Origin: Bispira polyomma | Lineage: Eukaryota | NCBI GenBank assembly: GCA_965649765.1 | Contig: OZ287752.1 | Coordinates: 42,160,001-42,224,000, forward strand | DNA length: 64,000 nt | Direction of reading: 5' to 3' | Part shown: piece by piece, positions 7,031 through 62,286 of the stretch | Position numbering within the stretch: the first letter of the stretch is position 1 | How the letters are laid out: each line of letters starts with the position of its first letter | Translations under genes and position numbers: made by a program | Notes under the pieces: generated by a model | What the model was told of the DNA's origin: nothing | The model's database searches: none | What the model saw: the letters and a program-made list of their open reading frames with translations, nothing else

Positions 7031-10000
7031 ATGAAGCTGCTGATATTGTTGGAGTTATTTGTTATACAGAATGTCTTACCTCAAACATTTGGTAAGTCAT
7101 TTCAATCTGAACACAAATAAACTAAGTAAAAAGAAGAAAACCCCTTTTTCCAGCTACTTTTCTCCATCATTCTATTCAACCATTTCTGAAAGGCGTACAT
7201 TTTCACAAAACTTAAATATTTAGCAGTATCAGTAATTTAGATAAATAACTGAACTAATTCATAAATATTCCAAATACATATATAGGTAGTTTATGTATTT
7301 GATGTCGTTTCTCTCTTCAGTGTCACAGTATTTTAGCTCCAATGTAGTTACTATTGCCTAATGGTTAGGGTTAGGTTTGATCTTGTGACCAGAAATTCCC
7401 CACTTTGATTTCCGGGTGGGGAAGTTGCCCCAAGTTCCACTCCCGCTAATGCCGCTAGGAGGTGGATATTATCCTTGGCCAAGAATGTTATAGACGCCTA
7501 TATAGACATATATTTCTCCACATGAAATACATCTACAATTTAACTTTTAATAAGATGAATAACGTCAATTATTCTGTAATGTGATTTACAAATATTATAG
7601 AGTCACCGATTTTATTAGAAAAGTTATATTACTAAAACTAAATGAAAGAATCAAACGTTTATCTTGTAAAACTTTAGATTCAGAGGAATTGTAGAAATAT
7701 AGATAGATATTTATATATATTTATTTATATATAACACCCTGTCTGACATGCAGGTAACTGTGAACCACTCTATAACTTGCAGATTACTGCTCCACCAGTT
7801 GGGACACTGCTGGCAGGGCTGTAATAGATAAGAACAATATGGTAAGTCCTGGGCTGGTCAGGGCAGTGGCGGTGTACTTCTGTCAGGCTCAGCAGGTGGA
7901 GCTACAGCTGTGGCAGCCAATACAGGGTCTGGAGTACAGAGTGGTGTGGAAGAGGGCAGTACAGCCACCCACTGAGTTGCCTGGCAGGTCTCTGGTATGT
8001 GTAGTTTATTAGTTTATAATGTGTGGGTTACTTTAAAGTGGTCTTCAGATGTAGGCTTCAGGAAACTGCTCATATCACATCTGTATCAACTCGTTATTCC
8101 GCCTAAACATTTGTCTGCTTGTCATGACTGAACTCTGATCACAAACCTTTTTCTCCTATCAGACCTTTACTTTTACATATTGACTGGTTTGTATGTCACA
8201 GAGGATGCTTGGTCGTCGATTGTGGTGCAATAGAAGTAAAACATTTACATTATGGGTACATCATAAAACATCAAAGTTTGATCATTCTTTCAGCATTGCT
8301 ACATACACCGAACAAAACATAAAGGTTTTAAGTTTATTCTTGCATATTTATTATGCACAGGTAAATCTGGACACAGAGGATCAGATTGAATTAAGCAGTG
8401 AAACTCGAATAGGCCTGTATGCCATGTCCAGTGGTACAATCCCTGTAGGCACTGTCTTCTACGCCGATGGATCCAGGAAGGTCAATCCAGCTGTTACTGG
8501 TCGAACAAACTACCAAGTGGGAGAGACCTACCTATTTGATGATATTCAGTATCCCTATGAATTCTATGCCCAGGTCTGCCCAGAATATGGTAATTTTATT
8601 TACAGTTATACATTAGGCCAATGATCAATATATTTGGCTTACACGTCTGTATGTTTTGGGTTTAACATTGCTTTTAACACGTTTTGTTATATCACAATCG
8701 GCAGTTCACTAGTGGTGATGGAATACCATGGATAGGTGGTCTGCATAACCACTGTTCTTCAGAGAGTCATCTGCCACAATTCAGTCCGGGCCTAGATTAA
8801 AACCCATGACTGCAGAGGTGGGAAGCGAGTGTGTTACCACTACACTTTCAGGCCCCCTGCATTCCTATATGACAAACGCATGAAGTTTGCTTTCTGCAGT
8901 TAGTGTTATACGACTAACTTATTAAATTGGTTCACTGATCCGTCAAAAAGTGCCACAATTTGCTATTGACCAAACCCAGTAATTGAGGGGCTCTTCATTG
9001 GCTTAAACATAGCTAAGTCTGTAGCTTAACTTGGCCTGAGTTAGATAGTTTGTCTCTCTTTTGTCTTTTTAGGAGAGTACACATCCATTCATCAACGCAG
9101 TTCTTTAATAAGCAAATAAAATAATTGTTCAGGCCCATGTGTAACCTTTTCCCCAATGTCTAGTAGGTGCCATGATTGTTTGACACAATATTGATACAAT
9201 ATATTTCAATACAATGAATGGCTATTAAGATTATGCTGACATTTTGATATGATTGCGTAACATAAAAAAAGACACCAATATATCTATTTAGCATAATTGC
9301 CCATTACCATCTTAATACTGCTGTTGTGACTAAAGAGTCAAGTATGTAGAAGTTAGATCAACATTGTTTGTGTATAATGTAACTTCCATTAAAGTCTATG
9401 TAATGAGATGAAGCTCTATCTATTTCAGATTGTCAGGAGAGGGTAGATCCAGTTTTACCACAGATACTTCCTGGTCTTATACCAAGTGAATTCTGTAAGT
9501 ACAACCTGCACTAGCTTTTATGATATAATATTGTAACTTTTTACTTAGTCTAAAAGTCCATGCAGGCAAGCCCAAATGTGTAATAATAGAAGTAGAACCA
9601 ATATTATCCGAACACGTTGAGAGGGCTAGCTTTAGTTTGATAATAAATCAAAATAGGCTTTTCTGTAGGAAGTTTACAACGCGAAGACAAAAATTGTGAA
9701 TGTGGAAATGAGTTAAAAAAAATCACATACTCTGTAAAACAGAAGTTAATACAATAGAGGTTCTACTGTATTATCCCCTCATAATCGTTTCAACGATTGT
9801 AACAATGACTAAAAGACTTGTAATTTCTACCACTTTTGGACACTGTACAATGTGGGTATTATACTATATAAAGCCACAAATAATACAGAATATATTCCTT
9901 CACAAATATTATTAGTTAGTAATTCCCCATACATATTGGGGTATGTTTCATGTAAGCAAGTGCATGTAAGTGTTTGTCACATTCATAATGCACTCTATCA

Positions 10001-13000
10001 GGGACTTTAAAAAATGACATCTTAACATGCACTCCATCTTCAGCATCCTGATTTCACCATACGTTTACAACATATTTGGTATAATTTAATTGCAGGAAAT
10101 AATCATTACATACAAGTTATAATAACTTGGTTGAGGTATGTTGAGGTATTAAGATGACATAATATACTTTCTGATTTCTATATAGGAAACTCTTGTTGTG
10201 TAGTTCAAAATAGGTTAGACAGAAGGTTTTATATCCTTCTGTGCACCTTTTTTTCAGTGGACTGTAGTGATAGGTTAATTGAAACTACTGGAAAGTCGGT
10301 GATTGAGTCAGAAAGGCTATTGCCCACTGGAAGATTCAGGGCAATAATAACTTACTTCTGCATTCAGGTGAGGTCAATAGTATTTTATAGTACTTTATTT
10401 AAAATAGAGTGATCAGTTGTCAGAACTTTCATATTCAGTTACATGTGGTGATTAAACAGTACATCAAATAAATGCCAGATTTTGTATTGTATAAGAGTTC
10501 ATCTTTCATACTCCAATCACTTATATTTTGCTACTTTGGACTAAAACTTTTAATAGTGTTCAATATCATATTTGGTTTAATGAATCAGTAGACAGTAGTC
10601 ATGTAATAATAGCCAGTTAAGATTGAAATTAACTAAATACTTGTAAAGATCAACCACTAACTTCATCTTCTTGACTAGACATGACAACCAAGAGCCTCTA
10701 CATGCTATAAAGCAATGCCCAAAGTCAGATGATGTAGATTGTACTAGTTTGCTGTCTTTCCATTCCCCTGTCTCCCCTCTAAATGCTATTATACAAGCCA
10801 ATGTCAGAGGATGTTGATTGTACTAGTTTGCTGTCTTTCCAGTCCCCCTGTCACCCCTCTAAATGCCATTATACAAGCCAATGTCAGAGGATATAGATTG
10901 TACTAGTTTGTTGTCTTTCCAGTCCCCCTGTCACCCCTCTAAATGCCATAATGCAATGCCCAATGTCAGAGGATGTAGATTGTACTAGTTTGTTGTCTTT
11001 CCAGTCCCCGGTCACAGTCCAAATCTGGGAGCCTTCACAAACTGACCACTATGTGTTGAAGTGGACAAGGACCTTACAGCCATCAAGAGAGCTGGGTAGA
11101 AGAACTGTGGTGAGTGAGTCTATATACTGTCCCCAAATAATTGCTATTTACCCTGACAATATTAGGAAAGAAGAAAACAAAACAAATCTTACAGTTTAGC
11201 TATCTAGAATACTTCAGACAGCCAGTGCTATGTATCCAAAATCTACGAATACATGCCATCTTTGTGCAGACATTTTATCACATGGCCAGAATTTAAGTTC
11301 AAGGTTATCTGATATTTTAATTTCTAAATAATAACCAATTCATGTCATTGAGTGTAATAAACTTCCTCTTTGAATGTCAATATTTATCAGTTGTAATGTA
11401 ATTTTTAGGAGAGTATGTATCCATTCATCCAAGAAATATACTTCATGAATAGAAATTTGACAGGAATACAATTAAATTAACTTTCAATTTCCAATGACTT
11501 TTCTGAGATTTATTTTCACTGTGTGGTATTTCTATAATCACTAAATTAACTTTCAGTCAACACAGGCAATTATTATTCAGTATCCATGCTCCTTTGCCAA
11601 AATAGCTTATACTTTTAAACAATAGCCCTGGTACTTAAAATGAGATGTCTATGTGTATCAGAGCTAAGGCATGTCAATGATGTGTTTTAAGTTTTATTCG
11701 GAAGCCTGTAATCCTTGTCTCTGTATGAAGACTAGCAGGGAAACTAGTGTATTCAGCAACTGCAATGTATTGACTCTAACATATCAAGTTGTTATACTTT
11801 CAGTTTCCTATTGAAGACTCTGACTCTTTCTCCCTCTCCTCAAACCACAGACTGGGTCTGACATCTAGCGACCCTATCACCCCAATCCCTACCATGTTTA
11901 TCATAGACCGGGCAGATGTCATCATATCTGAGCTATCAGGGGACTTCATCAAAGACACTATGTATCAGTTTGATAGCCTGGATTTTCCATTTGAGTTCAG
12001 AATAGCATTTTGTGGGACAACAGGTAAGCTAATTATGTATGCGAAACAATTTTCTTCATTACAGAAAGAAGAATCGAGTTCTCACACATTCTGAAAATGT
12101 GTGAGAACTTTAACAAACGTCTGAGAACTGGCCAAAAACAGGGGTAAAACTGGGGTAAATTTGGGCAAACGGCAAGAACAGGAGCTACAGCTGGAAATTT
12201 TGAACATGTTTAAAACTTCTGTGGTGGACAGCTCTGAAAGAACATCTTGAGAGAACTTGAGGAAACAGCAATGCAGGGGCGATGTCAGGCGTAAACGAGA
12301 ATTGAACTGCTTAGAATTTGTGTAAAACTGCTTAAAACTTGTGTGATCTGGCCAGAACTGGAGAGAACTTAAGAAAACGTAACATAACCTTGGCATAAAC
12401 TGGGGTAAATGGGGCTAAAACGGGTCAAAAACGGGGGATGCAAATATATGCAAATGCAAATGAGCATTTTCCTGCCTTTTCTCTTTCTTTTACTTGAGTA
12501 AACGACAATGCCGGGGCGATGCCGGGGCGATGCCGGGGCGATGCCGGGGGCGATGCCGGGGGCGATGCCGGGGCGTGAACTTGGACAATGTGAATGCACC
12601 ATAAAAATAAAAGGGCCCTGTAAAATAATGCACTTTTGTACGGTAGATATACAGCAGGAACTCTGCATGATAAGTCACTTAAGTGCTGAAATAATAGTTT
12701 GGAATATCTTTCTATTTACTGACAGATTGTTCAGCTGAACTGACAGATCCTACAACAACTTCTACCTTTCCTACATCTACATTACCTGACACTACAGTGA
12801 CCACTACGGGAACAACGACTACTCAGACTACTACATACACTACTACTACACCAAGCACTACAGCATCTACAACAGCTGAAACCACCACATCCACTAGTTC
12901 TACCACTACTGCTACTACACCCAGTCCTACAATTACCACAACACAAAAAGTAAGTGGCAATACCAGGCTCTCTATTGGCTTTGGCTGGGATAGATTGTCA

Positions 13001-14510
13001 GTATGGGAGATTTTTACAATGTTCTTTGGCATCATTTCGAATGTAATTCCAAATGTATCAGTAAATATGTAAATATAGTTTCTCATGTTACTAATTCACA
13101 ATTTTTGAGAAGTTGAACTTGAAATAATTTTTACTATTGGTAATTTTTAGGCAATATATCAAGTTTATATTTCGTAGGACTTTTCACCATCCCAGCTTAT
13201 TATCTAAACTTAACTCCTGGTGAGAATTTCCTTTTAACAAAGCAAAATTAACTGAAACCACTACTAATATTATAAGCTGCTGGTGTTACCACTGCAATGT
13301 GTATAACATCTGCTGAATGTCATTCTAACAGACAGAGCCAGGACCAGTAGGAGACACAGGACCACCTGGATCTAAAGGTACAGTGGGAAATACAGGTGTC
13401 AGAGGACCACCTGGTAACAATGGTCTAAAGGGTGAGTCTGGTAGTCCTGGAGATACCGGTAACCAAGGCAACAGAGGACTGAAGGGACTGGCAGGGGATA
13501 CCGGACCAAATGGACATCAAGGTGGTATTGGTGATCCAGGTTCACCCGGATTACTTGGCCAATCTGGTGCTCCATTTCTAGGTGTGTGTTCTTGTGTATA
13601 TCTACACCCCTTGTCATTAAGGTGTTTACTCTTTAGGAGATTCTTAAATGCCAGCAAAAGTTTATAATCCTTGGTACTTTTAAGTAAATACTGTTTCAAG
13701 TGAAGTAAATCTGTCTTCTGATGATAATTTATTAGTAGCAGCTTATTAAAGATAAATGTTTTTTCCAAGTTTATAATTAAAGATACAAGTTTTTACAAGT
13801 TTAGGACATCAGACAAGATTATGACAACCTGTGTAAGGGTACTAATGTGTAAAAAGAAATTAAGATACCAGTGGACATATATATAATACATACACTAATC
13901 ATGACTGCAATTTAATTACACCTGGAAATTCTCACATTGCAAAAAGTATATAAGATTGTATATAAGAGTATAGAGTTACTCTTTGGATGTAATTTAAGTA
14001 GTATGGTTCTTCAAAAAGTGAACATTAATGTGGAATCTTACCTATACATAACTTGTAAAACACCCAATGGTATACATTCTACTCAATACGCGTGCATATG
14101 CCAAAGATGTATGCTTGCCTTTTCCTATAGTTCCTGTAGTGACTCTTCAACTATGAAGGATAGTTCAGTATGATCATTTTATCTAATATATAATACCACA
14201 CACCTTTTCTATCAGAAGCATGGACATTTTTTATCCATTAATACCCTTAAATGCTACAGATCTTGCTATTAGTCGTTTATCAAGGAACATCTTGAACTAT
14301 GGTATGTGATTTTTCATATAAATGCTGTACCCTGCTTTTTACTTGTATGTCATTGTTTCAGCTGCTCTAAAGGAAGATTGCGCCTGCCACACGTTTCAGA
14401 ACAAATACCTGATCCTGGGTCTGATTATCTGGGCCGTGGTTCTGACATTGTTGATTGTTATTGTCACGTGTATAGCTGCTAAAGACTCATTGGAGATGAA
14501 AAACAGATGA
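7031..14510 (+). CDS. Gene A: predicted type I membrane protein with signal peptide, 2 uncharacterised QIW domains, Thr-rich stalk, collagen (Gly-X-Y)26 and C-terminal TM (541 aa)
   Basis: Exons 7031-7091, 7783-7994, 8361-8589, 9429-9494, 10258-10367, 11005-11109, 11804-12023, 12726-12949, 13332-13581, 14362-14510. All junctions are GT-AG with consistent phases; total 1626 nt with no internal stop. N-terminus MKLLILLELFVIQNVLPQTF is signal-like. TM is YLILGLIIWAVVLTLLIVIVTCIA. Confidence 0.85.
8040..8250 (+). mobile_element. L2-clade LINE 3' end fragment
   Basis: Matches the reverse complement of the 3' end of the LINE at 58220-58440 (cacatctgtatca.ctcg ... cacagaggatgc.tggtc..cgattgtgg.gc.atagaagtaaaa). 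Confidence 0.6.
8655..8857 (-). mobile_element. tRNA-derived SINE
   Basis: The minus strand has a tRNA-like head (gtgtagtggtaacacactcgcttcccacctctg) and the tail type seen in the window's other SINEs. Similar to 44146-44372. Confidence 0.6.
9590..9768. mobile_element. pogo/Tigger-like MITE (degenerate)
   Basis: Ends agtagaacc ... ggttctactg followed by TA. The left TA is not intact. Confidence 0.45.
10701..11015. repeat. ~80-bp tandem repeat (~4 copies) overlapping the gene A exon 6 splice acceptor
   Basis: The core gtactagtttg(c/t)tgtctttcca recurs at 10741, 10820, 10900 and 10982. Confidence 0.9.
12040..12601. mobile_element. Probable Harbinger-like non-autonomous remnant with G-rich 11-12 bp repeats
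   Basis: The right end tgtgaatgcacca is followed by TAA. Six units of (cg)atgccgggg(g) lie at ~12508-12575. The left TIR is not recognisable, so the left boundary is approximate. Confidence 0.4.
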
Positions 14511-15039
14511 AGACAGAGGCTGACTGTTTTAGTGCTATATATCTAACTATCGAACTACAATTAACATCTATTATATGTGTGACATGTTATTGGACTGTTT
14601 CATTATTTTTGATTTACTTCTTGTTTGGTGTACACTTACTGTTGTAATATATGGACCAGTGTTCTAATTACATGTGAAGAGTATGTTGTCTATATTTAAA
14701 CATCCTAAATACACTTCTGTAAAATAACTTGAAATTACTGTTCACTAACTTGTTTACATTCACTGAAATTTATACATTCAGTCTGAATTAGTGACGCCAT
14801 TGGTTACCAATATTTGGACTTTACCATCAAAAGAGATTTCATGTAATTGGCCCTCATTCAAACCTAGATGTAATTCTGGACCTCTATACTTATACGGTAC
14901 ATTGTGTTTTTGGAGTTAATTTGAAACGTCTTAGATTGTATTGCGATGGCCACATTTATTAGTATAGGAAACGAATAGTATGGGATTAAGAACTACAATG
15001 CAAATGACGTGGTAATCACTGTGGTCTTTTACCACCGAG

Positions 15040-15540
15040 CCACTGCAGTCAGTTTAATACTAGTCTCACTCTTTCAGAATTTAGTTTGGTTTTACATTGT
15101 TTTCAACAGTTTTGTTCATATCATAAGACTCCTTTTCTTAAAAGGTTTCGTTGGTTACCTGTCAAGTACCACACCATTTTTAAGACCAATGTTGTTACTA
15201 CATACAAAGCTGTAAACCTATGTCAGCCCCCATACCTTGCCTCACTGTTGTCTTTCAGCAGGCTTGTCAGGGGAAACAGAATTTCAGTCTCTGACACTAG
15301 AACTAGTAAACAGATTGGATCCTATGCCTTCTCTGTCGCAGCACCTACTCTATGGAATAATTTATCAACCAATGTACGATCCAAGGAAACCTCTCTGGCT
15401 TTAGAAGTAACCCAATCATGAATTTGCTTTGGAAATGCACTACGATTTTTACAACTTTGTCAATGATGTTGTGCTTTAGAAGATGCCAGGCATCAATTAG
15501 GCGGGTTAAAACTCTATCATATCAAATATTGTATTATTAT
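15040..15540 (+). mobile_element. L2/CR1-group LINE 3' fragment (decayed)
   Basis: Translation RWLPVKY..IFKT..TTYKAV...PPYLASLL...GSYAFSVAAPTLWNNL is typical of the C-terminus of L2-type ORF2. The tail gtgctttagaagatgccaggcatcaat is shared with the copies at 25305 and 31074. Confidence 0.75.
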
Positions 15541-15716
15541 GACCGCCAGATTCTATGGTGGAAGAAACCAGTGTTAAAGAACTGTAAACCACCGACCTGT
15601 GGCAAGTCCCTAACAAACTTTATCACATAAAGAAACAAACAGGATTCAAACCCACATTGGTAAGAGGCCAGTGATTTGAAGCAGGTGCTTGTAACTACTA
15701 ACTCACCATGGCCCCC
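15541..15716 (-). mobile_element. tRNA-derived SINE (MetaSINE-like body)
   Basis: Homologous to 40970-41140 and 43279-43476 (ttacaagcacctgcttcaaatcactggcctct...gggtttgaatcc). Confidence 0.7.
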
Positions 15717-16624
15717 ACAATGACAAGTTAGGTTAAAAAATCATGTCCGCTCCTGATAGACTGAAGAAAATGTTGACAAAATTTATTAGGAACCAGAAGC
15801 TCATGATAGACATCTTGATGACTCTTGGATAATCTACACGACTTGTCACAAGTCAGCTTGCAGCAGGTTAAAAAAACTTAAACAAACGTTTTGGGACATT
15901 TGTAAGAACTCTTGCATGTACTTGCATTAGTCATGAGTCACACAGAGTTCAACTAGAGCTATCCAGAGTTGACATGAGGATTTTCACCGAGCTGCCTGGA
16001 GTCAGTCCGAGCTAAGCACGACCTACAGAGTTTATCAAGAACTGCCCGAGTAAGGTGTCCCTTTTTAGTATATGACTTGTCAAGGAAGCAGAATTAACCA
16101 AGAGTTAGGACTCAGTCTTAGTCTGCCTTTTCCGGCATAACTTGGCGAAACTTTGCTTTGTGTGTGAGGGTAGCTTAACTGTATATATTTGAGGTATTAT
16201 CTCACATGAAGTTAACTACAAGAGTACCAGCCCAGGTATTCAGGGTGTGATATCAACGAATTTGATTTTTATAAGATTCACTGGTCTTTTGTGGCCTAAT
16301 GGTCATGGGTTTGACCTTGTGCTGTGATGGTCTCTGGTTCAACTTCTGGTAATATCACATTGAATGTCGGTTGATAACTTGCCTAATTCAAAATGTGAAC
16401 ACATAACTGCCTATTGATAATGACCGATGATGTGGTGTAGGATCCAACCCCTTCATGGAGAGCATAGAGTTATATATCAGCACTTTATTTTATCTAGTTA
16501 TATATTTAAAACAATGATCAAGAGTTTCTTGTTCCTTGGACACAGAATCCTTTGACAAGCCTAGATTTTCTTCAAACCCAACGCAATATGCATAGTTATT
16601 GTAATGCCATGATACAATTTGAAT

Positions 16625-16820
16625 TTAGTAGGGTTTTATGTCGCTTTCAACAGCTTAGGTTATACCTCAATGGTCAGATTTTAACGTGGCAGAAACCAGT
16701 GTTAATGTGCTGTGGACCATGGCAAGTACCTGACAAACCTTCCCACTTTCCGGCAGTTCGAACCTACGATGGTGAGAGGCCAGTGATTGTGAAGCAGGTG
16801 CTTGGAACTACTGAGCCACT
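16625..16820 (-). mobile_element. tRNA-derived SINE, same family
   Basis: The minus strand has gtggctcagtagttccaagcacctgcttcacaatcactggcctctcacc...ggttcgaac and the tail cctaagctgttgaaagcgacataaaac. Confidence 0.7.
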
Positions 16821-18696: not shown

Positions 18697-19564
18697 GCTG
18701 CAGTATAAGGGCCATAGAGGTACCTAAGTGAGAAACATATCTACTATTTTTTGAGCCATGTAAGTACCTGGGTGAGAAACCTCCTGTAGTATGTGGGCCA
18801 TGTAGGTACCTGGGTGAGAAACCTGCTGTAGTATGTGGGTCATGTAAGTACCTGAGTGAACAACCTCGTATAGTATGTGGGTCATGTAAGTACCTGAGTG
18901 AGAAACCTGCTGTAGTATAAGGGCCATGTAGGTACCTGAGTGAGAAACCTCGTGTAGTATGTTGGCCATGTAAGTACCTAAGTGAGAAACCTCCTGTAGT
19001 ATGTGGGTCATGTAAGTACTTGAGTGAGAAACCTCCTGTAGTATGTGGGTCATGGAGGTACTTGAGTGAAAAACCTCCTGTAGTATGTGGGCCATGTAGG
19101 TACTTGAGTTAAAAACCTCCTGTAGTATGTGGGTCATGGAGGTACCTGAGTGAGAGACCTCCTGTAGTATGTGGGTCATGGAGGTACTTGAGTGAAAAAC
19201 CTCCTGTAGTATGTGGGTCATGGAGGTACCTGATTGAGAAACCTCCTGTAGTATGTGGGTCATAGAGGTACCTGAGTGAGAAACCTCCTGTAGTATGTCG
19301 GTCATGGAGGTACCTGAGTAAACAACCTGATTAAGTATCTGGGCCATGTAGGTACCTGAGTGAAATACCTGTTGTAGTATGTGGGCCATGGAGGTACCTG
19401 AGTGAACAACCTCCTGTAGTATGTGGGTCATGTAGGTACCTGAATGAGAAACCTCCTGTAGAATGTGGGCCATGGAGGTACCTGAGTGAGAAACATGATG
19501 TAGTATGTGGGCCATGTAAGTACCTCAGTGAGAAACCTGCTGCAATATATTGGTTATGTAAGTA
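18697..19564. repeat. 42-bp minisatellite, ~20 copies
   Basis: Consensus cctgagtgagaaacctcctgtagtatgtgggtcatggaggta. It produces the 263-aa minus-strand ORF of 14-aa repeats. Confidence 0.95.
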
Positions 19565-21137
19565 TTAATGTCTGATGCATTCGTGAAATGTGAGATCTGA
19601 GATCACGCCATTACAAAAAAAAAATGCTTTTCGTATTTTCCAAATTATTTGTCTTAGCTTGAATTTTAAGTAACATGTGAGCTGTACACGTACATGAATA
19701 CACTGTCATAGTGAACACTGATTTAAACATATTTATGTTACTTTGGCAAAGCATTTTTGATCATCATAACCAAGCTTTAGGTATAGCCTACTGGTTCACT
19801 CAGGTTCATGCATGACCCAGCAATGTAGTTAGACAATCACAAAAATACATTTCTGCAAACCTAGATAATATATTTTATGGCATGATGGGACGCATAAACA
19901 GATGTATTATTAAAGATATCCATTAGCTTATCTTATCTTTAGTGTCGGTCCTAAAGTAATTACCTTTTTGCACACATAGTAAAAAATAGCAGCGCTTTGA
20001 CTTATTCATTGTTGTTAAAAGGGTAATATTACGTGGTTTCATTACTTTCAAATTTCTTATTTCTTGGGTCCTGCATAAAAGACTATATGCATTATATATT
20101 TAGTTTAGGATTTTGGACTGATTCCATTATGTTATTTATATGTGTGCTTTGATCCACCTTATGTAAATGAAGATGCTTTTAGAGGTTGTCATAATTTAAA
20201 CACGCAGTCACCTTTCCTGAGATAAACAAAAATTCCACACAGTGTAAAGTTCCAGTAAGTTTATAGGCAAGCCTTAAACAAGGCTTAAAAGGTCAAAGTA
20301 GGAAAACAAGAAATTGAAAATCAATTCAATGGCACATATAATATATGTAAGAGATATGTATCAATATTCTTACTATTGATTGTTGATGTATTGAGGTATT
20401 TGTTTTAATGGATAATTTTTCTCAATGACAATTTGATTTCTCATCTTGGGTATCTGTTTCAACGTCACTAAAACTGTGCATAGTATACTATTATCGACAC
20501 TAGAGAATTGTTCAGGTAAAAGATATACAGATGAATAACTTGTGTGAGTGTAATCTAATCTAACTCACCAGCATACAGTATGTGGATAACTAAGATTCAC
20601 AATAAACATTTGGAGGCTTAGAAGACATTTATTAAACAGCATCTATATATTGTTGCTTATTTTTTGTTAAGATAAAAATTAATATTCTGTGATACACAAC
20701 TAGGATATACCGCTGATAGATGTTGGAATCCTCTAGGCTTTGCTATACCAGGTATTATTTATGCGATATCACTTTATTTTAAATTGTAAAGTTATACAGT
20801 GTCCAACTTGCTTATGAAGAAACAATCTGGTTCAATAAAAGCTGGCAGAGTTTAAGGTATCTCTTATTTTACAGACGGAGGTGAAAAATCGCCTAAATTT
20901 AGGCAATTTTGTGGGAGTTTATATTTTATGGTTTAAAATCGTTACTATTTGACAGATTATTTCACAAATGAAACATCAATAAAACCCTTATAATGTAACT
21001 AATTTATTTATGTATTCATTTTAATAATTTTTATTTACAATTTCACAAAGCAATCAAAATAAAAAGCTATGCGATTACAAGGTGATGATATATTTTTTAA
21101 AAAGAGCTTATTTGGACCTTTAAATATCAAATTACTA

Positions 21138-21291
21138 CAGTCAAACCCCTTTAAGTAGAACTCTGATAAGTGGATTTGCATGTTAAGTAGAAGTTATTTT
21201 CAGGTACCATTTCTATATTTATAATTAACATTTACCCTGTTAAGTAGAATGTTTATGGTCCCTTTAGATTCGACTCAACATGGTTTCACTG
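21138..21291. mobile_element. pogo/Tigger-like (Tc1-mariner superfamily) MITE
   Basis: TA-cagtcaaacc ... ggtttcactg-TA, with a repeated internal taagtagaa motif. Confidence 0.75.
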
Positions 21292-21555
21292 TACATTTAT
21301 TTATGTGACTTTATACTGTATAACAGCAATATATATTTATGTTTTCAAAAGTCTAACTAATTAAGAATGACATGCATTTTAAATGCCAATTTTTATATTG
21401 CCTACAAAACCATCAAATGTCATACCATTATAGACACATTTATGTAATCTATGTATTTAAGCAATTTCAAATCAGTTTATAAATGAGGATTTAACAGTGA
21501 AATAAAGTTAGTGGTTGACTTTTGCGATTTTTAAGTGATTCTCTGTATCGCCTTA

Positions 21556-21998
21556 GTGAACGTTTCCATGCAGGCAACTTTCTGAGGCGACCAGCCGACG
21601 TATAACAGGCAATTTTCAATTTTTATGTTTCTATACAATATTTGAGAAAAATCGATACCTGTATTTAAACCTGAATATCTTAGCCATTTCTCAACCGATT
21701 TTGATGCAACAAAAAGCACAATATACCCGATAAAATAAGCTTTCTGACCATATTTTCATTAAATTTATACCTTTAGTAATTTTTGAGTTATTTAATAAAA
21801 CGGCAATGTTTACAAGGCGACGGGCAATGCCAGGCGATTTTTTTTCACTCCTAGTACCGAAAAAATCGCCTGGCATTGCCTGTCACCTATCGGCATTGCT
21901 CACATGGAAACACTTGGTTATAAATCAATGAAATTGGTAGAATCGCCGTCGGCCGTCGCCTGATCGCCTCAGAAAGTTGCCTGCATGGAAACGCACAC
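21556..21998. mobile_element. PIF/Harbinger-like MITE
   Basis: ~35-bp near-perfect TIR gtg(aa/tg)cgtttccatgcaggcaactttctgaggcga. TTA TSD at 21553-21555 and 21999-22001. Confidence 0.85.
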
Positions 21999-22840
21999 TT
22001 ATGGAGGTTGGCGACAACCTCTGTAAAATAAATGGTACCCAGAGTTTGCACATTCATGTATGTCAACGTCAGACTGTCAGTGTTTATAGAAAATGGGATT
22101 TTAAAAGGGTTCTATTATTTGAGGGTGTAAATTCTGAAGTCAGTTAAGACTCATTATGGTTGCAGAACTATACTATAAACCTACACTTTTACATTTACTT
22201 TGTTTCAGATACTTTTTCAGTGATTTTGCAATGTTCCTGAAAATGAGCCCATATATTCAGGTCATACATACGGGTACTTCACAGAAGACTAAACAAACAA
22301 AAACTGTCTTTGAAACTTCCTTTTGACACCCGTAAACAACCAAAAGACTGATCAACAAAGCAGAATGAATGATACCCTCCATTTCTGAAATCTCTATAAT
22401 TATTTAAACTCTTAGCTCTCCCCCCCCCCCGCCCCCCCCCCCCCTTTCCCCCAACACAAAGCGACCTGACAGACAATAGGGGTCTATTTTCTAAACAACA
22501 GATCATGTTCCTTTTGTTACACATTGTTTTGAAGAGATCTTGGTGGAGTGGCTTTTTGACCAGTTGGTGTCACTTACCTGGAGAGTAAATAACCTTTCAT
22601 TGGCAACGTGACTTTTCCCCCTTGTCAGTTTGTAAAATAAATATGTTTTTCTCAGGCTTAGTTTTTCATGTGTTTAGATGGTAAATAACCACTCGATGGC
22701 ATGATTTGCTTTGTTATATAGCCTCTCAAAGATTCATATTTAGAAAACTAAACACTAGTTTTACAACTGACTTTTTATATTATATATTTAGCACCAAATT
22801 TGTGACAATATATGCCAAGATATATTGATATGTTGATACT

Positions 22841-24248
22841 TGTTTTATTGTGTGTTTACGTAATGGGCAGAATATGGGATGTCATTGTACACAGGTCCTT
22901 AGTATAAACCTTTCACCGAAAATCTGTAATATTTGAAGACCCCCTCCGGTTTTTGTTTTTCATTTGGTGTTCTCCAAAAGGGTTTGTTTTAAAGCATCTG
23001 CTTTTATAGCACTAGCGTCTCACCTCTAAGGCCAGTGGATTTAAAACCTACTCTTCGATCATATTTTATCCCAGGAATTTATCAATCCAGAGACCATATG
23101 CATCAATATTCTCAAAAGACAATATTTACAATTTTCCAGCCCTGATAGCACTCTGTCTGATCCTACCCAACTAGGCCGATGAAGATCATAGACTACCTCC
23201 TGACCACTAGACTCAAGGAGACATAAATACTGAGCCTGGATAAGGCTATATATTAGTAGATAAAAAAAACCCTTAAAGATAGTAATTTAGGGCCGACAAA
23301 AACCCCTCTAGATCTCAAAGTGGAGTGGCATCAAACACCAATGGATGTATGGAGAGCCTGTTACACGTGTCTCTGGGAACGAGATAAACACCTCTTCTTT
23401 TGTTTTGTAACATTTCATTTACATTTCACATTGTTCTATAATTACTCAAAAAGTTGTCGATAGGAGAGGGATGATATATATGATACTGCGACAAAAACGT
23501 ATTGGATTATGATAAGGTGTCACTTTGATCCTTTCTAGTATGACTTCAAGTTGACTAGCTGCCAATTTAAATGTAAGTGACCTTAAAGTCAACTCAATGC
23601 ATTTTGGAGAGTAGATGAATTGCAAGAGAATGGACCTAGGTTCTATCCCCGAGTCTACCATAAAAAACTGTTGGTTATGAGCTGCCTATGTGACTACATC
23701 CCATTAACCTTGGGGACACTGATATATAGTAATCCCCAAGGCTGTATGTTAAACTTAATGAGGGCAAAAGAAGGCACCAAACAAACAGGATAGTATACTA
23801 ATAGAAAAGTGTTGATATATCAGTGATATAGTGTGCAACTGTGTATTGGATGTAACAAATGGGCATCAGTGCCACCTAAAAGTTACCTTCTAAATCCATA
23901 AAAAGTGGTGAGATAATAAATGAGCTATTATATTATTTTTATTCCCTCACATGTGTCATTTTCATGGATTTTAGTCAGGTTTTAATACCATATAATCACA
24001 CATGGTTGGGGGACGTATTTTAGTTTCAACTCAACTTACACTGCCAGATAAATCTGGAAGTTAATGGTTAGCCTTAGTCCTTCAAACCATTGTGTCGGAT
24101 GTGATCTATATCTGTTTTATTGTGTGTTTATGTAATGGGCAGAATATGGGTTGTTATTGTGTACAGGGGCTTGAAATGGCTATTTATGACTGAAATATAC
24201 CACAGGTCCCTGGTATAAACCTTTCACCGAAAATCTGTAATATTTGAA
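22841..24248. repeat. Pair of ~100-135 bp direct repeats (22841-22938 and 24113-24248)
   Basis: Both copies read tgttttattgtgtgttta(c/t)gtaatgggcagaatatggg...tataaacctttcaccgaaaatctgtaatatttgaag. The second has an extra ~38 bp. Confidence 0.85.
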
Positions 24249-24581
24249 GGTCTCCATTTGTGAGAGCTGACTTGTTGGATCTTTGCATATTGCATTGTGT
24301 TAGAAGAGAAACTGCATGTCTATAAATTTGGAACAAAATTGTACATAAACTGATCACAAAAAAATCTAAGGGAATAAAATATAATATTCAAAAATTTAAA
24401 AAATTATTATTATTTTTTTCAATATTTTAGATTACAACTGGGTCAGGCAATTGGATATATATAACCTAGATACACTTAGTCAATGCAAACTGTCACGTTA
24501 TCCTTGACCTCGATTGGGCCTGTACTTTGAAACTACATTGTTAATGGATGTGTAGACAGTAACCATAGTGACGTCACAAAG

Positions 24582-27500
24582 ATGTGGTGTTATTCCGTGT
24601 CATGGATTATCTTCGTTCTCAACATAGGATTTGTTTCCACTGAAGGTAAGTCTACGATAAAATGTAATATCAAAACAAAATGACCAGTCAAAGTGTCACA
24701 GTGCCAAAAAAAGTGAAATTAAAAATTTATCATACTCGCTTAAAAAGTTACTGGATCCATATTTAACCAAACTCAGTCCCTACAACGAATTCGATGTTGT
24801 TTCTGGTTTTGTGCTATGCTGGTGACAAATAAGCAAACATACATAGAATAAAATATGACCTCCATGGTTGATATAATTAGTGTAGTTCTATTACAAGTGT
24901 ACTTTTGTTCTTTTTGATATATATTGTGCAAAACATGTGTGTATTTTCCACTTATGGGGGTTTTCAGTGAGACTATGGAATGTTGCAAAACAGTAAAACT
25001 AGTACTATACTTGAGTATATATGGAAAAATATATATGACATTTTCTTAAATTATCAAATTGTGATCCTGGAACAATTCCTTATAAACCATAATACAATGT
25101 ACAGAGATTTTACAGTAAAGTACATTGTATTTACATTAAACTCGGTTTATTTAACTACCTTTATCTGGACAGTGGTCATCTAATCCACTATGTATTATCT
25201 GGCAGTACCTGGGAGCCCAGGTTGTGATCGAACCAAGGTCCTCTGTGTTTCAAGGGAGTGTATTACCCGTAGTGGCAGTATGGGATATGTGACTAAAATA
25301 ATTTTATTATTATTATGTATTTTTAACATGCTTTATTGATGCTAGGCATCTTCTAAAGCGCAACAGCAGAATCATTGATCCAATCATAGAGCCCATGGGC
25401 ATAGCAAAGTTGTAAGGGTACGGGGGTTAACAGCTGGTTGATCAGCAAGCAACCACACCGAGTGTTAACTCACCCCGTAGCATCCGGCAGCAAGAGGCGC
25501 AACTCCCTTTCACGCTTCACATGGTGAAGGGTGCCGTAGCCTAATATTCTTAGTCATACTACCAATTTGTTCAAGTAAAATGACAAAATACTAAAAACAG
25601 TGTCAGTACTACAAGGTCAAAGTCAAACCATACTCAAGTAATGCTTTTGCAAAAGTCCCAGATGACAGATAAAGAGGGCTACCACACGGCTATCATTACT
25701 TGGTGTGTTTGTCATCCGGTTGTAGGTATCCTAGGACAAATAGGGGAAGCTTTCCAGTCAGAAAAATTCAAAGATACAGAAGTCAGGGGAATCTTCCTCT
25801 CCACACATGCTGTATACAACCTCCTAGTTGATGCTGCCATCTATCGGTTCCGGGCCTATGTGTTGTTGGTGCATCCTGTACGGTTCCAAATCTGGAGACC
25901 AGTAAGAAATGGTCTCCAGGAATACAGCTTGGTGGGCCAAGTGAGGCTTCAGCCCAGATATACAGACAAATTTTATAATGTTAGTATAACCTCTGCATTA
26001 ACAAAAAATTTCAAAAATCTTATTTGTAAATTGGCAGAGATTGCATGAATCAGTTTACTTTTCGCCAATATTCTCATTCGGCTTTGAAAAGTTGAGCTTA
26101 CATTGTCAAACCAAATCTGAACATTTTTTAAAATTATTATTACTGTAACTTCTTTATTACTGGCAGCTTTGGAGATTCAGTGAATGCTAAAATTCCATAG
26201 AAGGACCTAAAAAACAGACTTAAGTTTTGTCCTTCAAATATAACTTAAAATACATACCTTGTTAAAACTTACATTGACTATTATTTACTTTTAATGTACA
26301 TGTATAACTAGGTGTCGGTGCCCAGACAAAGTCCAATAATAGTCAAACAAGGGGACATACTGGGCGTATTTAATGAGGAAGAGGGGTGTGCTTTGGCTTA
26401 CCAGTTCCAGCCATCTGGGAAATCTGGATCATGGCATTCAGACAGAGAAGAGGGGGTTACCATTGCAACAGGAGAGAGACGAATGTTTGACTCGATGCTG
26501 CTTCCTTACACGTTTTCTGTAGAAGCCTTTTATGACACTGGTATGGTATTTTTACAGCTATGATGCCTCTATTAAGACAAATATAACAAAAAATGTAAAG
26601 CAAGTTCAATTATTGTGTAAAGTCTAAGTATTTGTTAGTATTCTCCTTACAGAAAAGAATGTATATTTTTGTTTCTATGTATATTCCTCCAAACACATTA
26701 CCGTCCATAATACCAGATGGATCACTATTCATTGAGTTATTTTATTACAAAACAATGGAATGCCAGTTTGGGGATATTAAAGTATATAATTATTTAATTC
26801 ATAATTTGAAGATATCTATGTTAGTTAGATATGTCTGATATTATGAATCCGCACAATGATCGCCATAGTCAAATCAATGTATAATAAACAATCCAGACTG
26901 ATTCACTTTTGCATTCATTCACTTTTCATATGATGCACTGTTTGTTTTTAACTGCCACACACAGTTCTCTCTTGTTAACTTAAAGTCGATATTGTCATAT
27001 ACATCCTTTTTCAGATACATTGAAATATTTGGGACCATTTGAATCAGAATCCACAACAGAGGAGAATGAACTGGAAGGCCAAACAGAGGAAATTCCTGTG
27101 GTATCGGGGAACCTTAACTACACGGGCAACTCTCTGGCTAACAGAGATCAAATTATGTTGAAAGATGCTAGGGCCATGTACCTCTTCCCCGGCATTCGGT
27201 TCACTGATGGTGTGGTGGTGGAATTCCATGCATTCTTCGGAAAGAAACAGCAAGTAGTGTTCCAGATCTGGCGGCAATACAGTGCTGATTCCTATGCACT
27301 TGTAGGCTCATATGTTCATTTGCCTCAGAATGTGCCAGCATATGAAAGGGTGGGTACAAGCAACCTGACTGGTTGTTACATCTTAACTTTAGGGCTTAGT
27401 ACAGTTTTTTTACAAAAATGCCAAAAAGGTACTATCAAATTAACTGAAACCATGAGCCTGTCTGGGATGTATCACTATTATGTTTTCATATTAGCCGAAT

Positions 27501-30500
27501 TTCTAATAATATCCTTAATTTTTGTGTCATATGCATATTCATTTGCAAACACGGCTGTTTGCAACATTTTAATCCTGTTTGTATAGTGCATAATGTTCAG
27601 ACAGAACCTATGTAGTTATACATACATATAGTATAATAACAAGTTATAAAACATGGACAGTATGCATAAATGTGGAATACGGCTAATATCATTGGCCATA
27701 CTTTTTGCTCTTTGTTAGTACTTCTTTGTACAGAACTTTTTCACTTAGAGCCAAACAGTATTTGGCTGCATCAAACTGAATAACAAAATGCTTCCACCCC
27801 TTTTCAAATAACATGACACTAATTTATATTTAATTCAACAGAACTAGAAGCCAATATATCTAAAGTATGTTTTACCCATTTAGATTTTGACAAACACCAT
27901 CAATATACATTCTAATTTGAGATGATTTCTATAACTTCCAGGTTACTCTTTCCCTTGGAAGCTTCATATTTGTCCAGGATAGAGACATTCTTGGAGTAGC
28001 TTTCTTGAGTAATGTGGGTCCCATAGCCTACAGAATGACAGGATTCGAAGGGGACAGTGGGCCACACGTATCCAGCATTGTAAACAACAGACTACCAAGT
28101 ACTGGCGAAATTGTCAAATTTGGGACAACTCATCTCCCTTATGACTTTGCAGTTGGAGCCATTTATGACACTGGTACAGACCTGTACAACTTAACTCTAT
28201 ATATGATCTCAAGTTCACATATCTTTGTACTGAATTAACACTAGCTGTACACCTCGTTTGGAGTCACACATCAATTATATTGTAAACGTTTACCATTACT
28301 CTGCATACTTCAATTTGAAACAAAACAGATTTTGCTTCATGAATGTAGACAATGATAATCAGTACACTTGATCAATATATTACACCTTACCAAAAAATAT
28401 CTGTAGTTTAGCATACATAGTAATAAGTGTGTTACTAAATGCATATATGATCATTTACTTGCAGACACAGATCCTACAAAGTATGGTGAGCCACCTTCAA
28501 GTGTTGTACCCGAATATCCTTCGTCACCCACAGCGGCACCATTCACACCCTTTTCTATTGAGTTACCAAGTGATCATCTCCTGCTGGGTGATACATACCT
28601 GTACAGAGCCCCATCTGTTATGTCAAAAGATGCCCAGAGATCCTTCATTCTATCAGACATAACATTCCCATCTCCTGGACTGGTTGTAGCCTTCCATGCC
28701 TATGTTGTCCAACCAGGAAGGCTCTACTTCCAAATATGGCGTCAGTATAAGAACAGTGGTAAACACTTTGAATTGATTGGCCAGAAAGGAATTAACTTTG
28801 AGGTTTCTGGTGTTGATAACTTTGAGCCAAGGCTGGTGGAAATTATTCTGGAAGACGATGAACAAATTCATGTACTACAAGACGACTTAATAGGTTTTGC
28901 CAATGGTCAGAATACTAGTGTAATTGGCTACCAGTTTACGTCTACATCAACTTTTTCTTCCCCTGTGGGAATCAATGCAGCCATTGGTGAAGTCATTACT
29001 TTTGATGACTTACCACTTCCTTATAAATTTTCACTTGCTGTAACATTTAAAAGAGGTAGGTTTTCTGTGGTGACTTTATTTTGTTATTGGCTCTCATTGA
29101 TACTATTTAATAGTTTTAGGTTTTTTAGTTTATTTGGGTAGTTGGTCTGGTGATCAAAAGATACAGGATTCGACTCCTAGTAGGGCCACAACGGTCCTTC
29201 ATTGATAAGATCCTTAGACAGATGTGAACACACTTTTGCCCACTGGCCCTGATCAATTTGCTATGTACTAAACTAATGACTAATTTCTTTAATGTTAATA
29301 ACATTGCGCATCTATAGGGCATGATAAAATGTAATATACACAAACACAATATATAATCATAGTTGTAAGAACTCATACACTTTTAAATTAACCAAATTTT
29401 TCAAATTATCAAAATCCAGCTAGCATGTAATAAATATAAAAAGGAAAATGTAAAATAAACACAAGCAAATGAAGCAGATTGAGGTTTAAATTTGTATTGA
29501 TTGACTATTTTAAATATTTGAAAGATGAGGTGACAACTCAGTTAAATGGCCTTGAGAGCAGCTCCATTGATGATGTCACTGAGGGCCGCAGTTCCATTGA
29601 TGACGTCACTGAGGGCCCACTTGTAGGGAAACTGGTGGATACAACTGGTAAGTTCACAAGGCAGGCATCTTAAAAGTTATCCAAGGCAGTGGTGTGGTTT
29701 TTAAGCCTCTCACTAGGTGAATCTCAAGACAAGACTGACAGATTCTTGTATTTTGGGATGCCTTGTGCATATTTAGTTATGTATTTATACTACTTAATTA
29801 CGTTTTAATTATATTTTTTATCCTTTCACTTATCCCTTCCTCGTGGTTTAGAAAACAAAAAATATGTACAGTAAACACAATTTTGGTCTCAATGGCCTCA
29901 CGGTTAAAGTGTTCAACTGTGAATCAGGGGGTCCTAGGTTCGATCCTCGCTGCAGGCCTGGAGAATGTACCATTGGGCAAATACTTCAAATAAAGTAGTC
30001 TCTCGCCTCCCAGATGTTGGCTGTTGCTGGGTCTTAGTCTCTGTGTCATATGTGGCAGCATGGCTAGTACGCTCCCTTAGCCTAAGCTTCCTTTCAGCAT
30101 GTTTTCCCTCATTACGCAATACTATTGAGTGCTTCCTTTCAGCATATTTGCATCAGATCCGATCAAACGTCGGTCGACATCTGTTTGGCCAACATATTTT
30201 ATCTGCCAGGGAGAGGAAAAATCGGAAGGACTGTCTGATTTTGACACAAAAATGGCTGCAAAAACACTGTCATGGGTATAGTTTTTATCCTATATATACT
30301 CGATATTCGTTAGATGTTAACTTTAAAAAATGACATGAGAAAGCTTATTTTATTGTGATTACTGTGCTTTTTGCCAACAAAATCCGTTGAGAAACGGCTC
30401 AGACATTTAAGTTTATAGACGGGTACCTCTTTTAACTTCCGCTTCTGCTGTAAAGAATACATGACAGCAATGTCATAATGACGTCAGTTTTGTAGCTACG

Positions 30501-48229: not shown

Positions 48230-48860
48230 ATGAACCAGGCAGAAATGGAGGCCATGGAGGAAAACCATGAATTGGAGGAAGAGGACGAAATGCTTCACGA
48301 CGAAGGAATAGAATATGAAGGGGACGAAATGATGGACGAAAATGGAGAATACCCTCAGTTTTCATTTCCCTCGTTTTCGCCGACGAGCAGAAAACGCGTG
48401 CGCTTGAGGAAACCCAATTTTAGTGAACAGTGTTTGGAACTCTTAATTCAACTGGTGAATGAACATCGGGATATACTCTACACCAAGCAGGCTTACACCA
48501 ATGAAGTCCACGAAAAGAAAATTATGGTGTGGACCCACATTACGTCCCAGATCAACGCCATCAGCTCCATTCCGAGGACAATGGAAGAGGTGGGTAAACT
48601 AAGATGGCCGTAGATCGGTTTTTGGTGGGGATATTTTCTCCCCCATTCAAATCATTGCATTACCAAGCTTCAGCCTCGTTTTGAGTCCCGCGAAAAACAA
48701 GGCTTTTCTCTCTTGATACTGAGTGGGAGCTGTTTTTTGTCTCTTAATGTGTGGTCAACATATTGTAAAAAAAATGGCTGCTTTGTGAGTGTTAGCTAGT
48801 ATCACAGGTACTTCTACACCTGTGTATATATACATATGGCTGTATACATATAGCTGGTGG

Positions 48861-48891
<31 letters not shown>

Positions 48892-58760: not shown

Positions 58761-58899
58761 GTAGCTGTGAAAGCAACTTTAAATCTAATCGAAGTGCTGC
58801 AAGAAGATGCATATAGAGCTGATGAGGGAGAAAGCCAGTGGAATATTCATAACAAGATCTGAATCTCTAAATGGCCATATCGTTCGCTTCCATCTCATC

Positions 58900-60270: not shown

Positions 60271-62286
<2,016 letters not shown>

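Follow-up and report, generated by a model that had tools for sequence, protein, structure and literature searches.

Cwp84's lectin-like domain (PF18560 Lectin_like, PDB 4ci7) is an extracellular beta-sandwich similar in size to the module that is repeated five times in the locus described here, and it shares the module's predicted fold with Z scores of 12.6 and 11.6 for two module models. The Cwp84 report describes a Ca2+ site formed by Leu339, Glu448, Lys460 and Asn487, states that sugar binding was not demonstrated and that the usual sugar site is missing, and lists protein binding (IFT25) and the non-lectins MYCBP2 and XRCC1 among other uses of the fold (PMC4089489). Identity between this domain and the module is 10%, PF18560 gave no match on the window exons or their relatives, and PF18560 is tied to prokaryotic papain proteases whereas the module is free-standing and promiscuous. 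Against a six-sequence PF18560 alignment, hhalign gave the two subfamilies of the module family probabilities of 0.3% (subfamily I) and 39.7% (subfamily II). DUF4082 (PF13313), to which the first-pass annotation had tentatively likened the module, falls in the same fold group (Atlas TM 0.50), so the likeness holds for the fold but not for the sequence, where Pfam gave no match, profile probability was 0.4-0.8% (0.4% in the comparison bearing on that claim) and all 19 DUF4082 domains scored under 5 bits on the module HMMs. The DUF4082 and PF18560 alignments matched each other at 96%. Membership of the module in either family by sequence was rejected on the lack of a Pfam match and these profile probabilities.

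The CBM-like domains of the esterases FjoAcXE and PbeAcXE (7tog, 7tok; 9kqz is similar) matched with Z 9.2-10.3 over about 145-155 residues at 8-10% identity, but unlike the module they pack against a catalytic domain. In PbeAcXE the CBM-like domain binds uronic acid through Arg25, Asn26 and Arg139 (PMC9105624), a site that in its residue types recalls the R-D-R triad of subfamily II. F-type lectins, CBM32 and discoidin (F5/8 type C) may share the galactose-binding-like sandwich, with Z 6-7.5 over about 105-112 residues, and Z values below 8 lie in the range that the tool calls a common arrangement. F5/8 type C is itself a class of extracellular modules and occurs beside this module, but Pfam F5_F8_type_C gave no match on the module regions.

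Collectins, ficolins, C1q, SR-A/MARCO and CL-P1 are collagen-stalked pattern receptors, and their familiar membrane forms are type II. Gene A of this locus resembles them in carrying a globular head on a Gly-X-Y stalk, with an expected trimer and multivalent display, but its head is not a C-lectin, fibrinogen, gC1q or SRCR domain and it is a predicted type I protein with the head N-terminal and the transmembrane (TM) helix C-terminal. Animal mosaic proteins are said to be built from a few dozen types of class 1-1 mobile modules, which are described as mainly beta and extracellular, with phase-1 flanks, many partners and an intron after the signal peptide (PMC8001218). The module shares the phase-1 flanks, the predicted mainly beta structure and extracellular location, the many partners and the post-signal-peptide intron; it differs in not being a catalogued module and in having a single-domain secreted form in bacteria.

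Two predicted receptor genes and their five modules

Coordinates are positions within the window, the whole 64,000-nt stretch of DNA analysed. Joining exons by coordinate gave uninterrupted open reading frames for gene A (541 aa, 10 exons, 7031-14510, plus strand) and gene B (763 aa, 8 exons, 24582-31875, plus strand), with GT-AG at 16/16 introns; all splice junctions of both genes are predictions from consensus sites only. Both products are predicted type I single-pass proteins. Hydropathy, the only criterion used, places a signal peptide at the N-terminus of each (windows of 1.4 and 1.7) and a single TM helix near the C-terminus (windows of 3.3 and 3.0). Gene A encodes in order a signal peptide, A1, A2, a Thr stalk, 26 Gly-X-Y repeats and the TM helix, and gene B a signal peptide, B1-B3, the TM helix and a Tyr-bearing tail. 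Positions 25517-29945 had 0 differing letters compared with contigs of two runs from one study, possibly the assembly's own source; these contigs are DNA-like and carry no splicing information. The parts of the two genes are as follows.

7031..7091, +, gene A exon 1, predicted signal peptide, followed by a phase-1 intron (exon joining, hydropathy)
7783..8589, +, module A1 (exons 7783-7994 and 8361-8589; phases 1-0-1)
9429..9494, +, gene A Cys/Pro linker exon, 22 aa (1-1)
10258..12023, +, module A2 (exons 10258-10367, 11005-11109 and 11804-12023; phases 1-0-0-1)
10719..11009, +, 80-bp tandem repeat, 3.6 copies, in which the middle A2 exon's acceptor is duplicated
12726..12949, +, stalk exon of gene A, rich in Thr/Ser (T+S = 65% over 75 aa)
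13332..13581, +, collagen exon of gene A with 26 Gly-X-Y (PF01391, E 1.2e-18)
14362..14510, +, final coding exon of gene A, encoding a predicted TM helix that contains the conserved Trp and a short cytoplasmic tail
24582..24645, +, gene B exon 1, predicted signal peptide, followed by a phase-1 intron (exon joining, hydropathy)
25726..26540, +, module B1 (exons 25726-25979 and 26312-26540; phases 1-0-1)
27015..28173, +, module B2 preceded by a linker (exons 27015-27349 and 27942-28173; phases 1-0-1)
28465..29055, +, module B3 and its Pro/Ser linker in one 591-nt exon (1-1)
29525..29647, +, acidic Ser/Thr linker exon of gene B (1-1), containing a 30-bp tandem duplication
31412..31875, +, final coding exon of gene B, encoding a predicted TM helix and a cytoplasmic tail of about 120 aa with 7 Tyr

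The first-pass annotation had described five copies of a module bounded by phase-1 introns and marked by Q-[IL]-W and F-x4-5-P-[YF]-x-F motifs, and all five pairs of motifs were found where it had placed them. Phase-1 introns flank each module (5/5 in the window, 8 distinct introns), the mid-domain phase-0 intron is common to A1, A2, B1 and B2 and missing from B3, and the second-half exons measured the 229, 220, 229 and 232 nt previously given. A2 has a second phase-0 intron (10367/11005) that is also found in an upstream paralog. Of the acceptor copies in the 80-bp repeat, the frame is kept by the last alone. An N-terminal linker of about 30-45 aa is part of the exons of B2 and B3.

Likeness among the copies was assessed by Smith-Waterman alignment against 500 shuffles for all 10 pairs, and 8/10 outscored all 500 shuffles. 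Within genes the scores were high (A1-A2 z 36.7, with 44/138 residues identical; B-B z 21-22), and between genes they were lower (A1-B3 z 12.7, A1-B2 9.6, A1-B1 5.9, A2-B1 5.2). A2-B2 (15/500 shuffles) and A2-B3 (59/500) were not significant as pairs in this test. A2 scored 32 bits on a profile made only from named animal proteins.

Predicted fold and range of the module family

The B3 core (28563-29054) was used for folding and the AlphaFold model (pLDDT 94.7) was a galactose-binding-like beta-sandwich. Among the matches listed, the top one was the Cwp84 lectin-like domain (Z 12.6, 139 residues aligned, rmsd 2.6), followed by cyanophage A4 capsid chain 9jwb_Z (Z 11.3), which is likely the CBM-type cement protein gp25 of that phage (PMC12002296). 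Phage tail or baseplate chains (Z 9.9 and 9.4) and the esterase N-terminal CBM-like domains (Z 9.4 and 9.2) came next, with F-lectins and CBM32 below them (Z 7.5-7.0) and PHR, IFT25, neuropilin and DDR domains also among the neighbours (Z 6-7.8). The model of a bacterial relative had the same top seven matches as B3. The model and its matches agree with the beta-sandwich, lectin-like fold proposed at first pass. The C1q/TNF-like alternative fared poorly, as TNF/FasL chains reached only TM 0.27-0.32 with rmsd >10 in Foldseek; C1q and DUF4082 structures were absent from the 50 VIA rows shown, which excludes neither. Foldseek of the B3 model against the PDB gave nothing at E 0.001 or better, and PDB sequence searches with three module alignments gave nothing at E under 0.07.

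No Pfam family covered the module when window exons and relatives were scanned, as the first-pass annotation had reported, and a full HMMER search with a profile yielded 352 relatives. A word-indexed search with B3 found one longer relative and none of near length. The relatives come from annelids, a nemertean, a brachiopod, molluscs, a hemichordate, an echinoderm, sponge clusters and bacterial PEP-CTERM proteins, and also include protist-like sequences. The bacterial relatives are surface proteins consisting of a signal peptide, the domain and PEP-CTERM, and NCBIfam gave notable E-values for PEP-CTERM tails only (24 proteins). Bacterial queries found no relative in viral contigs or GenBank phages, and of 10 proteins compared with PHROGs one matched a tail-fibre family (E 7.6e-7) and one had two weak unknown matches. 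The occurrence of the domain in bacteria and protist-like sequences, and the predicted single-pass receptor form of both genes, were absent from the first-pass annotation.

About 20 Pfam partner types were found across 67 scanned relatives, among them collagen (26/67), EGF, SRCR, C-lectin, astacin, laminin-N and F5/8, with C-lectin, SRCR, F5/8, SUEL and ApeC among those above Pfam cut-offs. In this genome 12 further module copies (12/12) had candidate phase-1 splice sites at both borders of the domain, an acceptor at one and a donor at the other; these are consensus predictions and were selected for that position. Since the copies descend by duplication, their phases do not count as independent observations. 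Copies in this genome follow SRCR exons or precede collagen or EGF-like exons with phase-1 candidate junctions. Four lie directly after SRCR exons, two of these with an F5_F8_type_C_2 exon further upstream. The C-lectin-like and EGF-like exons beside genomic copies are by-eye calls that Pfam did not confirm at E 0.01. The range of partners and the varied neighbours sustain the earlier description of a mobile class 1-1 module, and the family likely spread by phase 1-1 exon shuffling. A search of openly accessible literature, covering listings and abstracts as well as PMC8878817, found no account of the module family, and an undescribed mobile recognition module is our best reading.

The family splits into two subfamilies. 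Subfamily II contains all bacterial rows and keeps the R-D-R triad: near the N-terminus, 85% of occupied rows have the Arg and 90% the Asp, both rising to 100% among bacterial rows, and a further Arg lies near the C-terminus. The window copies belong to subfamily I and do not have the triad: where the C-terminal Arg would stand, all five carry P-[YF]; the N-terminal Arg is present in B2 alone and the Asp in B1 alone. Conservation of the Q-x-W-R and G-D-x-x-G residues, which sit in strands or turns, may be structural. A FastTree tree of 163 of the 191 rows (28 bacterial rows thinned out) placed the bacterial rows beside protist-like sequences, inside subfamily II; because support above this grouping was low (0.37) and the tree is unrooted, no direction of transfer is claimed.

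Candidate functions of the module

We give roughly even chances to the reading that the five repeats represent one Pfam-less, ~150-residue lectin-like beta-sandwich, spread by 1-1 shuffling, that forms receptor heads for multivalent weak glycan binding. The module would form the heads of the two predicted single-pass receptors, which would probably bind surface glycans through several weak sites together. Gly-X-Y repeats trimerise in collagens, and gene A chains would do so through their 26 repeats, with six heads carried over a mucin-like stalk. In gene B, three tandem heads would supply the valency, and the Tyr-bearing tail may signal. The ligand would most likely be a glycan of microbes, mucus or neighbouring cells, as for collectins and scavenger receptors, but in genes A and B the head is at the N-terminus of a type I protein. 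Counted in favour of glycan binding were the CBM-like and phage structural matches, the lectin-type partners, the bacterial surface relatives and the Arg/Asp/Arg of subfamily II; counted against it were that a shared fold shows no function and that the window copies are without the triad.

A less likely reading is that subfamily I of the same mobile beta-sandwich has protein or peptide partners, in adhesion (homophilic or heterophilic) or in recognising a secreted ligand, and that a glycan role is confined to subfamily II. Discoidin, neuropilin b and PHR domains bind proteins or peptides, and the missing triad in subfamily I is consistent with such a role, as are the PHR, IFT25, neuropilin and DDR domains among the structural neighbours. 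The Trp motif of the TM helix, counted with a regex composed after the motif had been seen, is conserved in 26/43 TM-bearing relatives and four genes in this genome, suggesting a fixed receptor assembly, and the resemblance of gene B to Capitella ELU15286 (3 modules and a TM helix) means that it may be a conserved gene and not a fast-changing immune locus. However, the nearest structural matches are CBM-like or phage surface domains, and features such as tandem arrays, collagen stalks and lectin partners typically accompany avidity for repetitive ligands. Arrays reaching 7 copies, and the possibility that the module's most conserved residues are core positions, would also suit a rigid spacer or a scaffold for folding that binds no ligand itself, as with many Ig or FN3 domains or the stabilising role offered for Cwp84 (PMC4089489). 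We consider this unlikely, as in many relatives no other globular domain accompanies the module, which then tips a collagen stalk (21 proteins are classed module+collagen+TM), and it is the whole mature protein in bacteria, leaving nothing there for a spacer to space.

Wrong or dead gene models (mis-spliced or pseudogene), or copies alike by chance, appear highly improbable. The consensus-only junctions, the A2 middle acceptor inside a tandem repeat with three decoy copies and the two non-significant A2 pairs leave some room for this, but neither reading frame is interrupted, every intron has GT-AG, unspliced fragments found in other genomes begin or end at the same mid-domain position, and the family has 352 matches and a confident predicted fold.

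Glycan binding could also be set in a wider and more tentative history, that of an uncatalogued lectin family common to bacteria, protists and invertebrates. A single secreted domain would have become an animal class 1-1 module, and in lophotrochozoans the Arg pocket would have been swapped for an aromatic one, founding type I collagen-stalked pattern-recognition receptors. Bacterial PEP-CTERM proteins would then keep the ancestral form, and the receptors would be a mirror image of vertebrate scavenger receptors.

The module looks like one more class 1-1 type that is widespread in invertebrates and not in Pfam. A profile of it would fill in unannotated regions of hundreds of proteins, astacin, laminin-like and discoidin/VWD mosaics among them. 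In lophotrochozoans it marks out a receptor family that combines a conserved TM helix with a collagen stalk in type I orientation. The single-domain bacterial relatives make structure and ligand easy to approach, and serve as a test case for the passage from a free secreted domain to a shuffled module. If the module binds glycans it would be a new lectin family; if it does not, it would still be a new extracellular domain, and a modest surprise.

Genes A and B and their surroundings

Genes A and B lie on the plus strand, and with exons joined by coordinate and splice sites predicted from the DNA, 16 of 16 introns were GT-AG. Gene A (541 aa) runs from a signal peptide through A1, a short linker, A2, a Thr/Ser stalk (T+S 65%), 26 Gly-X-Y repeats (Pfam PF01391, E 1.2e-18) and a TM helix to a short tail. 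Gene B (763 aa) consists of a signal peptide, B1, B2, B3, a linker, a TM helix and a ~120-aa tail that contains 7 Tyr. The first-pass annotation had described these five copies of a ~135-150-residue QIW(R) module, and the motifs were found at the positions it gave. It had also put phase-1 introns at the borders of every copy and a mid-domain phase-0 intron in four. The predicted splice sites agreed, with phase-1 introns flanking 5 of 5 modules and the mid-domain intron absent only from B3; A2 has one further intron. Pairwise similarity between copies was above all 500 shuffles for 8 of 10 pairs, A2-B2 and A2-B3 being the two that did not beat them. Genes A and B are thus two ORFs that carry a mobile extracellular domain towards the N-terminus and a hydrophobic helix near the C-terminus; the fold and the membrane topology are predicted. 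The other features of the window are:

10719-11009: 80-bp tandem repeat, 3.6 copies, with repeated copies of the acceptor site of the middle A2 exon
15008-15418 and 58471-58866: open frames resembling, by eye, decayed LINE reverse-transcriptase ends
18757-19564: array of a 42-bp tandem repeat (19.2 copies at 86% match), lying between genes A and B
25183-25704 and 29881-31185: gene B intron repeats of very high copy number (by contig depth)
36752-43928, plus strand: D-isomer 2-hydroxyacid dehydrogenase gene exons (PF00389, PF02826)
48140-52338, plus strand: Myb/SANT-like DNA-binding gene with a long low-complexity last exon (PF13873)
60274-62286, minus strand: actin gene (PF00022, E 2e-100)

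Splicing at an upstream acceptor copy of the 80-bp repeat would shift the frame, and the 42-bp array has repeat open frames on both strands. Summed contig depth was 1e4-1e6 in the gene B intron repeats, which are probably SINE- or MITE-like, versus about 10-100 in exons. The LINE-like frames had no Pfam match at E 0.001.

A sequence family with bacterial relatives

The module had been left outside Pfam, and it stayed there: the best match of the window module exons (E 0.04) fell short of the cut-off, and no family passed it on the module region of any of 67 scanned relatives. A profile built from window pieces and one relative was searched among 1.84 billion representatives and matched 352 proteins at E 0.001 or better, 54 of them at 1e-10; the relatives examined further come from 150 listed of these 352. 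All those with names (16 of 30 proteins looked at) were annotated uncharacterised or hypothetical. Their organisms include Owenia, Capitella, Dimorphilus, Paralvinella, Tubulanus, Lingula, Babylonia, Batillaria, Intoshia, Glandiceps and Patiria, and some eukaryotic matches look protist-like (P0066 from EukProt, P0081, P0052). Capitella ELU15286 resembles gene B in layout. Querying the ESM Atlas with the third module of a Capitella protein returned feature matches without a common Pfam 38.1 family in 28 of 30 cases, including Porifera and Annelida clusters at 0.95.

By two C-terminal columns, 166 non-bacterial domains were classed as subfamily I (P-[YF]-x-F; 72, including all five window copies), subfamily II (R-x-[YF]-S; 44) or unclassed (50). 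At N-terminal columns independent of these, Arg occupied 85% of 28 occupied subfamily II rows versus 12% in subfamily I, and Asp 90% of 31, where Val is commonest in subfamily I; both residues were present in 100% of 43 bacterial rows. Collagen occurred in 23 of 53 subfamily I proteins versus 0 of 27 in subfamily II. Subfamily I receptors also have in common a TM helix bearing a conserved Trp, matched in 26 of 43 TM-bearing relatives by a regex written after the motif was seen, and present in 4 genes of the Bispira genome.

Three family matches end in PEP-CTERM-type tails; used as queries, these three retrieved 49 proteins with E no worse than 1e-19. Few carry names, among them Paraglaciecola aquimarina, a gammaproteobacterium, and Ca. 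Brocadiae; one sits in a gene-dense 91-kb Planctomycetota contig. A bacterial profile of 44 of the 49 (five were too short once trimmed), with database size set to 1.84e9, gave B3 an E-value of 2e-7 and picked up 81 of 161 non-bacterial domains below E 0.001. A profile of 41 named-animal domains recovered all 44 bacterial rows with E no higher than 5e-8; reversed controls stayed under 8 bits. Among sampled Planctomycetota genomes 9 of 301 matched at 1e-6, and 6 of 8 matches checked were above 25 bits with a domain-only profile. The family tree yields no direction of transfer.

Predicted fold

The B3 model (82 alignment rows; pLDDT 94.7, pTM 0.90) was nearly all beta. The Cwp84 lectin-like domain ranked first among the matches listed in a wide structural search (Z 12.6, 139 aligned, rmsd 2.6), supporting the beta-sandwich, lectin-like fold proposed earlier. 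Next came cyanophage A4 chain 9jwb_Z (Z 11.3). Tail and baseplate chains of phages scored 9.9 and 9.4, CBM-like domains of esterases 9.4 and 9.2, and a capsid chain of PBCV-1 9.2; PHR, IFT25, F-lectin and CBM32 came after these at Z 7-7.8. The top seven for a bacterial relative were identical. Passages of PMC13433997 and PMC11406892 mention Cwp84-like domains as putative binding sites of phage baseplate proteins. The subfamily II protein P0101 matches the tail-fibre family PHROG 1858 (E 7.6e-7), which may connect the module by sequence to its structural neighbours in phages.

The C1q/TNF-like suggestion found no support, as TNF and FasL align with B3 at TM 0.27-0.32 only. The DUF4082-like suggestion held for the fold group and not for sequence. 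Comparing profiles from our own alignments (DUF4082, 19 sequences; PF18560, 6 sequences), subfamily I matched neither (probability 0.4% and 0.3%), and subfamily II had a weak link to PF18560 (39.7%). Between DUF4082 and PF18560 themselves the match was 96%. On these comparisons the module is a separate family within their fold group.

Mobility and possible binding

Pfam partners were scanned in 67 of the 150 listed matches, the longer ones, with one dropped for size. About 20 partner domain types were found: collagen in 26 of 67, calcium-binding EGF, PAN, EB, laminin N with laminin EGF, and the combinations astacin-ApeC-CUB-kringle-sushi-C-lectin-ShK, F5/8-VWD-C8-TIL-SUEL and LamG-SRCR-TIG. 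Listed relatives carry 1 to 7 modules. In P0048 (Owenia CAH1785885.1), a laminin-N and laminin-EGF protein, the module lies between EGF repeats and a TM helix, at a position reminiscent of the laminin IV domain insertion. P0075 (Patiria XP_038047394.1) has five modules with F5/8 domains in its N-terminal half, before VWD, C8 and SUEL, a layout reminiscent of sea star adhesive proteins.

The Bispira genome (G000) holds at least 12 further copies. Three lie less than 90 kb upstream on the window's contig, which makes a cluster of five genes or more:

G000:C5:42078701-42155900, two minus, one plus: three further module genes, upstream of the window

The plus-strand gene has collagen and TM exons downstream and the extra A2 intron position. 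Two copies, on contigs C1 and C7, are followed by collagen exons, and seven more are on C3, C7, C8 and C9. Four C3 copies directly follow SRCR exons (Pfam-confirmed); ahead of the SRCR exons, two of the four have an F5_F8_type_C_2 exon as well. Downstream of these four come exons that by eye resemble C-lectin, and downstream of the C9 copy come EGF-like repeats and a TM exon, both by eye. One C3 paralog (L048, G000:C3:4487832-4492634) has, by eye, a retrotransposon-like insertion between SRCR and module exons. Phase-1 candidate acceptors and donors stood at the domain ends of 12 of 12 further copies, a count that does not amount to a statistical test, as the copies share descent through duplication and the candidates were chosen at those ends. 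Internal introns vary. Phase-1 ends with varying internal introns fit the class 1-1 shuffling diagnostic in passages of PMC8001218, and with the partner types and varied genomic neighbours they uphold the mobile class 1-1 module of the first-pass annotation.

Gene A chains may trimerise through collagen, and a mucin-like stalk would then raise the six heads of the trimer. Gene B would present three heads in tandem, and its tail may have a signalling role. We consider it an even bet that the module binds glycans, given the fold neighbours, lectin and SRCR partners, multivalent layout and bacterial surface location. The PbeAcXE domain points the same way, binding uronic acid through Arg25, Asn26 and Arg139 (passages of PMC9105624), residues putatively equivalent to the Arg-Asp-Arg (R-D-R) triad of subfamily II. 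Against this, the window's subfamily lacks the triad, and Cwp84, according to passages of PMC4089489, has no demonstrated affinity for sugars and is missing the usual site. Recognition of proteins in place of glycans is the main rival, a tentative and less probable reading; a module serving as a spacer ranks behind it as unlikely, and faulty gene models come last as very improbable.

Type II is the usual orientation of membrane collagens and scavenger receptors. No description of this family was found in the openly accessible literature, covered mostly at abstract level. A class 1-1 beta-sandwich module of galactose-binding-like fold is of a kind already known; the family, its cross-kingdom range and a type I collagen-stalked receptor appear undescribed.
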